From: a virus
Taxonomy: Duplodnaviria; Heunggongvirae; Uroviricota; Caudoviricetes
DNA: 24,502 nucleotides
Reading direction: 5' to 3' (one strand)
IMG/VR virus record: IMGVR_UViG_2718217868_000003
The translations under genes were made by a program, and so were the position numbers. Positions 7,844-8,193 of this stretch are shown in pieces. How positions within the stretch are numbered: position 1 is the first letter of the stretch; each line of letters begins with the position of its first letter. The notes beneath the pieces were generated by a model, which had not been told where the DNA came from, searched no databases, and worked only from the letters and a program-made list of their open reading frames with translations.

Positions 7844-8103
7844 TATTATGATGCGCACTGATTATTCCTTATTCAGCTAAAATTTCTACTGTAGTCCCAA
7901 CTTCCGTTCCTCGCTCAAAGCGGACTAAAAGGTTAGCTTGTGTCGGACTTTGCGTATTAAAAGAAGTGCTGGTGGTGACTAGTGGTTGAGCCCCATTTCC
8001 ACAGAAAAAATCAGAGAAACTATACCCAATAGTTGTATTGAATCACTGACGAGACAGCCTCATATTCATCAGGACTGGTGTACGTCCAATACAGGAGGTT
8101 GTG

Positions 8104-8193
8104 GTGCTGGTTCTCAAATGTGCGCTGGCTATTACGGCTGTAATGGCGATTTATTGTCTTGCTATTGTTCTTATGGATCGCCTTTCTGACTGA
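8104..8193 (+). CDS. Candidate small hydrophobic peptide (29 aa, MLVLKCALAITAVMAIYCLAIVLMDRLSD), possible type I toxin-like or small membrane protein
   Basis: AGGAGG at 8093-8098, 5 nt before GTG at 8104; single predicted transmembrane helix. Overlaps a different-frame 67-aa ORF (7986..8189); only one, if either, is real. Confidence 0.2.
   Translation: MLVLKCALAITAVMAIYCLAIVLMDRLSD

Follow-up and report, generated by a model that had tools for sequence, protein, structure and literature searches.

Between a retron reverse transcriptase (RT) and the leader of a hok toxin locus, two small and overlapping reading frames occupy a few hundred nucleotides of viral DNA, and the question that this locus raises is whether either frame is a gene and, if so, what its product might do there. 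The window analysed is a stretch of 24,502 nucleotides, to which all positions refer, and it represents a cryptic, Qin-like E. coli prophage of the lambdoid type: over the 502-base stretch compared (7844-8345) it does not differ from strain H6, and its order of ORFs matches the H6 annotation. An earlier note, made from the letters of the window, had placed both frames between the RT (6008-7843) and the hok leader (8236-8407), and had drawn attention to an AGGAGG motif 5 nt upstream of a GTG codon that opens a 29-codon frame with the product MLVLKCALAITAVMAIYCLAIVLMDRLSD (here ORF A), as well as to a 67-codon frame ending in a Cys/Gly/Tyr-rich tail (here ORF B). We find all of these elements exactly as described, with the 29-codon frame closed by a TGA stop at 8191-8193 and the 67-codon frame opened by TTG, and both frames lie upstream of the hok promoter. 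The features on which the following paragraphs depend are these:

8104-8193, plus strand: ORF A, a probable 29-codon gene with a GTG start and a TGA stop, intact in all 101 relatives covering the full conserved block
8093-8098, plus strand: Shine-Dalgarno sequence AGGAGG, 5 nt before GTG 8104, its GGAG core mostly kept
7986-8189, plus strand: ORF B, a 67-codon Cys/Gly-rich frame, judged not to be a gene, open in 30 of 101 relatives
8020-8199, minus strand: a 59-codon antisense frame, judged not to be a gene, open in 64 of 101 relatives
8201-8560, plus strand: hok context, with promoter (8201-8229), mRNA leader (8236-8407), mok (from 8348) and hokD (8405-8560)

The pattern of a Shine-Dalgarno sequence followed by a small frame is, by itself, not beyond chance. 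A Shine-Dalgarno-like site and a start codon precede 11 ORFs of at least 20 codons in the window, several of which are plainly spurious, and ORF A stands out among these 11 by its hydrophobicity only (GRAVY 1.74); apart from HokD (GRAVY 0.54), it is the only strongly hydrophobic small ORF in the window preceded by such a site. Because the pattern does not exceed chance, the reality of the frame has to be decided by comparison with relatives, which were found with degenerate DNA patterns. The pattern that selected a first set of contigs prescribed residues 1-10 of the peptide; hence our statistics are based on a set of viral contigs collected by a pattern in the downstream hok promoter only, which avoids selection bias arising from the ORF.

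The prophage opens with an integrase, an excisionase, a truncated exonuclease, an O-like replication gene (4093-5112) and a DUF977 gene (5153-5554), continues with the RT-Toprim gene of an Ec67-family retron (6008-7843), the ORF A region and the hok promoter (TTGGCG-17-TAGAAT, 8201-8229), and proceeds through the hok mRNA leader (Rfam RF01794, 8236-8407), mok and hokD (8405-8560) to rem, ydfU and the Q antiterminator; the stop codon of ORF A lies 8 nt before the hok -35 hexamer. Further Rfam matches in the window (11705-12097, 14596-15012, 20965-21163) comprise two cspA-type thermoregulator leaders (Qin cspB and cspF) and the IS009 RNA family. Positions 1-4100 hold no immunity region, and, in agreement with the H6 annotation, the O-like replication gene directly adjoins the truncated exonuclease pseudogene. 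With the immunity region absent, the early-right genes would therefore be without their normal promoter.

The relatives locate ORF A within a block that is shared regardless of what precedes it:

7899-8235, no strand assigned: conserved block of prophage backbone, on the right side of a variable cargo slot; alignments start at 7892-7911 whatever the cargo

To the left of about 7899, up to the DUF977 gene (5153-5554), the DNA is strain-specific cargo. Comparison of the slot in twelve further sequences (L002, L003, L006-L014 and L072) revealed HEPN, IS1, NUDIX+HAD, zeta toxin, DUF5677, DUF262+TPR, Drt2+RipA, acetyltransferase and deaminase+SIR2-like cargos, and in K-12 Qin relBE stands at the slot position, with the block and most of the hok leader gone. 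On these alignments, positions 5555-7898 represent an exchangeable cargo hotspot of Qin-like lambdoid prophages, here holding the retron, and ORF A appears as part of the prophage backbone at the right edge of that hotspot. Within the block, variation and indels are concentrated at 7940-8000, where a 14-nt deletion (7964-7977) is found beside GTGCTGGTGGTG repeats in L008, L009 and their relatives, and conservation is greatest at 8000-8200. Recombination junctions occur on the left at about 7899, 8033, 8051-8061 and 8078, and on the right at about 8208; the smallest shared unit therefore corresponds approximately to promoter, leader, ORF and 15 further nucleotides. This unit is followed by non-hok sequence in E. 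coli and in one S. flexneri chromosome (L072, L114, L185), and it is also present in E. albertii and E. ruysiae. Short contigs from metagenome-assembled genomes labelled Collinsella, Scatousia and Haemophilus (L180, L181, L183) carry the block almost unchanged, probably through mis-binning.

The earlier note had proposed that conservation among relatives should be checked, and ORF A is indeed conserved: in addition to being intact in every relative that spans the full block, its full-length region is kept in 110 of the 123 usable sequences ascertained by the downstream flank alone. In the remaining tenth or so, ORF A is cut by cargo-replacement junctions or by one deletion, and two of 68 unique aligned sequences contain a 2-nt frameshift. 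ORF A therefore appears to be dispensable, yet it is usually retained. Its start is conserved at GTG 8104, and many relatives have lost the neighbouring GTG (8101); the copy on the Shigella invasion plasmid (pINV) has ATG in place of GTG and the same length of 29 codons. An in-frame TGA upstream of ORF A (8047-8049) is lost in some lineages, on account of which gene callers report products of 62-97 aa that end in the 29-aa core (P0009, P0013, P0038). That core is the only part common to all of the called products.

The substitution pattern, for which a synonymous-constraint analysis had likewise been suggested, points to purifying selection on ORF A. Parsimony events, counted on a neighbour-joining tree of recombining sequences, are distributed 14/12/36 over codon positions 1/2/3 (62 events, chi-square p=1.9e-4; binomial p=5.6e-5 for the share of third positions), and those in the adjoining non-coding stretch 8194-8235 are distributed 13/7/16 (p=0.17). 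The excess of change lies at the third positions of ORF A, which are the first positions of the antisense frame, and it therefore fixes both the coding strand and the phase. Segregating alleles within ORF A include 15 synonymous and 15 nonsynonymous changes, where 31% synonymous would be expected (p=0.022), and the replacements are conservative ones (A/T/V, I/V, M/V/I, D/E/N, R/H). A deeper comparison is provided by three lineages of about 77-78% DNA identity, namely the window, Shigella pINV and L113; the Shigella plasmid matches listed were all of equal identity and were counted as one lineage. Synonymous and nonsynonymous divergence amount to pS 0.52 and pN 0.14 between the window and pINV, 0.49 and 0.10 between the window and L113, and 0.60 and 0.11 between pINV and L113, with only 1-2 second-position changes among the 17-20 differences of each pair and pN/pS of 0.2-0.3 against the deep lineages. 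Selection on ORF A is moderate (pN/pS 0.2-0.45), an estimate made on 29 codons with limited statistical power. Our interpretation is that the peptide, its length, its start and its Shine-Dalgarno sequence are kept by purifying selection at a depth where synonymous sites are about half saturated, and we consider it very probable that ORF A is a real gene.

The same relatives argue against the two frames that overlap it. ORF B, which the earlier note had offered as a possible component of the neighbouring modules, does not behave as a gene: a 1-nt insertion after 8006, which changes the length of an A-run and is present in 55 of 78 unique sequences, shifts ORF B into stop codons, frameshift and stops together break the frame in 71 of the 101 relatives, and its phase does not match the substitution periodicity. 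Older pipelines list the 67-aa product as a 'hypothetical protein' in hundreds of contigs, which reflects the behaviour of gene callers and not conservation. The antisense 59-codon frame was also rejected. Its ATG start is ATA in 43 of the 101 relatives, internal stops were present in two of the first 13 relatives examined, and its third positions, being the first positions of ORF A, show no excess of change (14 of 62 events); phage HannyBb and a RAST file list it as a 'hypothetical protein', in both cases automatically. We judge both frames to be probable by-products of a real ORF A frame.

Two promoter-like sites lie upstream of ORF A:

8038-8066, plus strand: predicted sigma-70 promoter of ORF A with conserved hexamers, TTGAAT (8038-8043), a 17-nt spacer and CATATT (8061-8066)
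8019-8046, minus strand: leftward promoter-like site, -35 GTGATT (8046-8041), a 16-nt spacer and -10 TATAGT (8024-8019)

Among 68 unique sequences, 57 retain both hexamers of the predicted ORF A promoter, as do all three deep lineages, while the intervening spacer has diverged and sequence farther upstream has either diverged or been replaced. Fixed hexamers separated by a diverging spacer form the footprint expected of a sigma-70 promoter. With 8 of 12 consensus matches, below the threshold of a promoter scan, the putative promoter is a weak one, and transcription is predicted to start near 8072-8074, so that the leader would measure about 30 nt. Most of the tabulated sequences that bear ORF A keep the GGAG core of the Shine-Dalgarno sequence (a minority have GGGGG, GGGAGG or AGAAG), and the site is also retained in pINV and L113. 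The leftward site stands back to back with the predicted ORF A promoter, in that 15-mer of the upstream region which shows the highest conservation; 48 of 68 unique sequences retain it, and pINV has a version that reads CTGACT-16-TATAGT. Cargo genes on the minus strand, or a non-coding RNA, might be transcribed from it. An operator-like inverted repeat in the same stretch (ACTAT-N5-ATAGT, 8019-8033) does not recur at a meaningful place and was set aside. Downstream of ORF A, no intrinsic terminator was found by terminator-scan criteria in the contexts that are free of hok.

Of 5426 complete E. coli genomes, 1835 contain 80% or more of the ORF A unit, and under none of the matches listed does RefSeq annotate anything at ORF A; E. 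coli H6, ATCC 25922 and E. coli W are among the carriers, as is S. flexneri M90T. Among plasmids, 124 PLSDB records from Shigella match, and those inspected are large invasion plasmids. In pCP301 (L186, NC_004851.1, 4001-4173) a 78%-identical unit lies 379 nt upstream of the start codon of icsP (sopA); a hok promoter and a decayed hok leader come next, and the hok gene itself is absent. This arrangement suggests a lambdoid-prophage origin for the DNA upstream of icsP. On pWR100 (CP037924), the ORF A copy is at complement 90908-90997, where Prokka calls CP037924_00134. GenBank contains sporadic entries for the product under 'hypothetical protein' or 'membrane protein'. As the earlier note had remarked, the 29-aa peptide matches no family that can be named: Pfam and NCBIfam profiles gave no match at E up to 10, PHROGs gave a single insignificant one (E=0.74), and PADLOC gave none. 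Furthermore, among 1.84 billion cluster representatives only nine match the peptide, all at 83% identity or more, and these nine are the same peptide with differently called starts. The peptide string was not found in literature text, and Fozo et al. 2010 do not mention it. On this distribution, ORF A appears to be restricted to Escherichia and Shigella, and to represent a new and narrowly distributed family of small proteins, albeit one of a familiar kind.

Among the alternatives to an ordinary prophage gene, the one that survives best regards ORF A as the toxin gene of a type I toxin-antitoxin module not recognised so far, or as that of an orphan membrane toxin. Its product in excess would depolarise the inner membrane, would normally be held down by an undetected RNA, and would help to retain the prophage or pINV or else abort phage infection. 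A length of 29 aa, a GRAVY of 1.74 and a single helix are typical traits of type I toxins, the location on a mobile element directly beside a hok/sok locus fits such a role, and ORF A has remained intact on Shigella pINV despite the decay of the neighbouring hok. Moreover, the leftward promoter-like site is arranged back to back with the ORF A promoter, a geometry seen in tisB/istR-1 and zorO/orzO, and in the minimum-energy fold the Shine-Dalgarno sequence pairs weakly with an anti-Shine-Dalgarno stretch at the 3' end of the ORF.

Within the minimal shared unit (8035-8208), however, no antisense promoter is common to the three deep lineages and no conserved terminator was found, and several lineages with ORF A (L005, L020, L073, L113 and E. 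albertii) do not have the leftward region. An RNA from the leftward promoter would be no more complementary to the ORF A mRNA than shuffled sequences are, as judged by duplex energies, and the single 8-nt repeat (GTGCTGGT, 7966-7973 and 8104-8111) sits in the 14-nt stretch that L008 and L009 have deleted. The predicted leader of about 30 nt is short, shuffled sequences fold as well as the predicted mRNA does (z=0.00), scans for structured RNA on either strand of 7899-8215 returned z-scores of 0.00, -0.20, +0.99 and +1.24, and the probability that the Shine-Dalgarno sequence and start are unpaired, 0.21-0.59 across lineages against about 0.4 in controls, indicates no consistent sequestering. 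The locus has no Rfam match other than hok/sok, and ORF A matches none of the type I families in Rfam, Pfam or NCBIfam; the Hok/Gef family (PF01848) is among the unmatched profiles, and BLASTP of the peptide against the HokD of the window yielded no alignment at E up to 100. An 11-nt inverted match between 8052-8062 and the 5' element of hok was treated as chance. Of the likeness to type I toxins that the earlier note had seen, size and hydrophobicity are borne out, whereas the other parts of such a system, an antitoxin RNA and a structured mRNA, were not found. We consequently regard a type I toxin as possible but unsupported: the module or orphan toxin described above seems rather unlikely to us, and a shade more doubtful still is a toxin of an unrecognised membrane-toxin family whose RNA partner is unseen or which is controlled in some other way.

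A second alternative, which we consider improbable, holds that ORF A is untranslated and that the block is conserved either as young, recombining prophage DNA or for functions at the level of DNA, for example as the stretch preceding the hok promoter or as homology arms for the exchange of cargo, with the frame being incidental. It agrees with the low diversity of the whole of 8000-8235 as opposed to the ORF alone, with the loss of an intact ORF in about 10% of relatives, and with the lack of any RefSeq annotation. It also agrees with a published differential RNA-seq map of S. flexneri M90T (PMC7132871), made in TSB at 37 C and OD 0.3 and comprising 14,051 start sites genome-wide. The pWR100 table of that map lists icsP starts at 90709 and 90726, as well as one at 91318, and none near 91027 or 91087 (PMC7132871), where transcription from the predicted ORF A promoter and from the leftward site, respectively, would be expected to begin. 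Constraint at the DNA level nevertheless does not predict a three-base periodicity in exactly the frame of ORF A, nor pN/pS of 0.2-0.3 at a pS of about 0.5 with length, start and stop kept in three deep lineages, nor the change of the start from GTG to ATG on pINV. Furthermore, ORF A is kept where the context of the hok promoter has been replaced.

The weakest proposal, raised by the earlier note, is that ORF A or the 67-codon frame is a retron accessory or an integral part of the hok/mok/sok module, and although it draws on their position between retron and hok and on the commonest arrangement, in which hok follows ORF A, we find it scarcely credible and the distribution of ORF A appears already to have largely refuted it: homology to relatives begins downstream of the retron, which PADLOC types as a single-gene system (RT-Toprim type I-C) and which is present only in sequences nearly identical to the window, the ORF A block follows at least ten different and unrelated cargos, the stop of ORF A precedes both the -35 hexamer and the mRNA 5' end of hok, ORF A occurs without hok (L072, L114, L185 and Shigella pINV) and hok without ORF A (K-12 and O157), and the 67-codon frame is broken in most relatives.

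We therefore return to ORF A as a prophage gene, the product of which is most likely a small inner-membrane prophage protein, its role and topology being read from composition. ORF A would be translated from GTG 8104 and expressed as a 'moron', that is, a prophage gene with its own promoter outside the phage operons, from the weak sigma-70 promoter TTGAAT-17-CATATT through an unstructured leader of about 30 nt. Possession of its own promoter would matter because neither the immunity region nor the early promoter survives in this cryptic prophage. To judge from its residues, the product would be a single-pass inner-membrane peptide with a helix of about 19 residues, Lys5 lying on the cytoplasmic side and the acidic DRLSD tail in the periplasm. 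Many small enterobacterial membrane proteins act at native levels that are not lethal, and we favour a similar mode of action for this peptide over that of a tightly silenced killer, because the features that silence type I toxins were not found. The gene travels independently of the retron and is separable from hok. Taken as a whole, the statement that ORF A is a real gene of the prophage backbone, encoding a small, non-lethal membrane peptide under its own weak promoter, seems to us on balance probable.

If the peptide is made, RefSeq misses a conserved gene in about one third of complete E. coli genomes and in the Shigella invasion plasmids, in the latter case upstream of icsP, a region whose regulation is well studied. 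ORF A also marks the fixed right border of a slot in which defence cargo is swapped (retron, Drt2, HEPN, zeta toxin), and may serve as an anchor for finding such cargo. Were the less probable toxin-family reading true, about one third of E. coli genomes, together with the Shigella virulence plasmids just upstream of icsP, would carry a toxin, encoded at the border of a hotspot for defence cargo, with a part in maintaining the prophage or pINV or in abortive infection. A membrane-toxin role would give pINV and Qin-like prophages a further element of maintenance or abortive infection, and a benign role would mean one more small membrane protein without a known partner; neither outcome would overturn current ideas. 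We consider ORF A to be of mild interest, for its commonness combined with consistent non-annotation, its position at the edge of a defence slot and the fact that pINV has kept it upstream of icsP.

Three groups of known systems offer points of comparison. With type I toxins (Hok/Gef, TisB, Ldr, Ibs, ShoB, DinQ, ZorO), ORF A shares a length below 60 aa, a hydrophobic single helix and residence on a mobile element. It even lies beside a genuine hok/sok locus, but it has no sequence similarity to any of these toxins, no RNA antitoxin was found for it, and it differs from them in a predicted leader that is short and unstructured and in a Shine-Dalgarno sequence that is not consistently sequestered. 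With the morons of lambdoid phages and the genes that flank defence hotspots, it has in common a compact unit with its own promoter, a place in the early-right region and a border with swapped defence cargo; known morons are usually larger proteins with demonstrated lysogen phenotypes, whereas ORF A is a candidate moron. The third group consists of AcrZ, MgtS, YohP and YkgR, small inner-membrane proteins of E. coli that emerged from searches for small ORFs. Unlike these proteins, which are encoded in the core genome, ORF A is carried on prophages and a virulence plasmid and is confined to Escherichia and Shigella. It nevertheless resembles them in a length within 20-50 residues, a single predicted transmembrane helix and a strong Shine-Dalgarno sequence, as well as in having been missed by standard annotation and in a moderate constraint that is focused on hydrophobic character.
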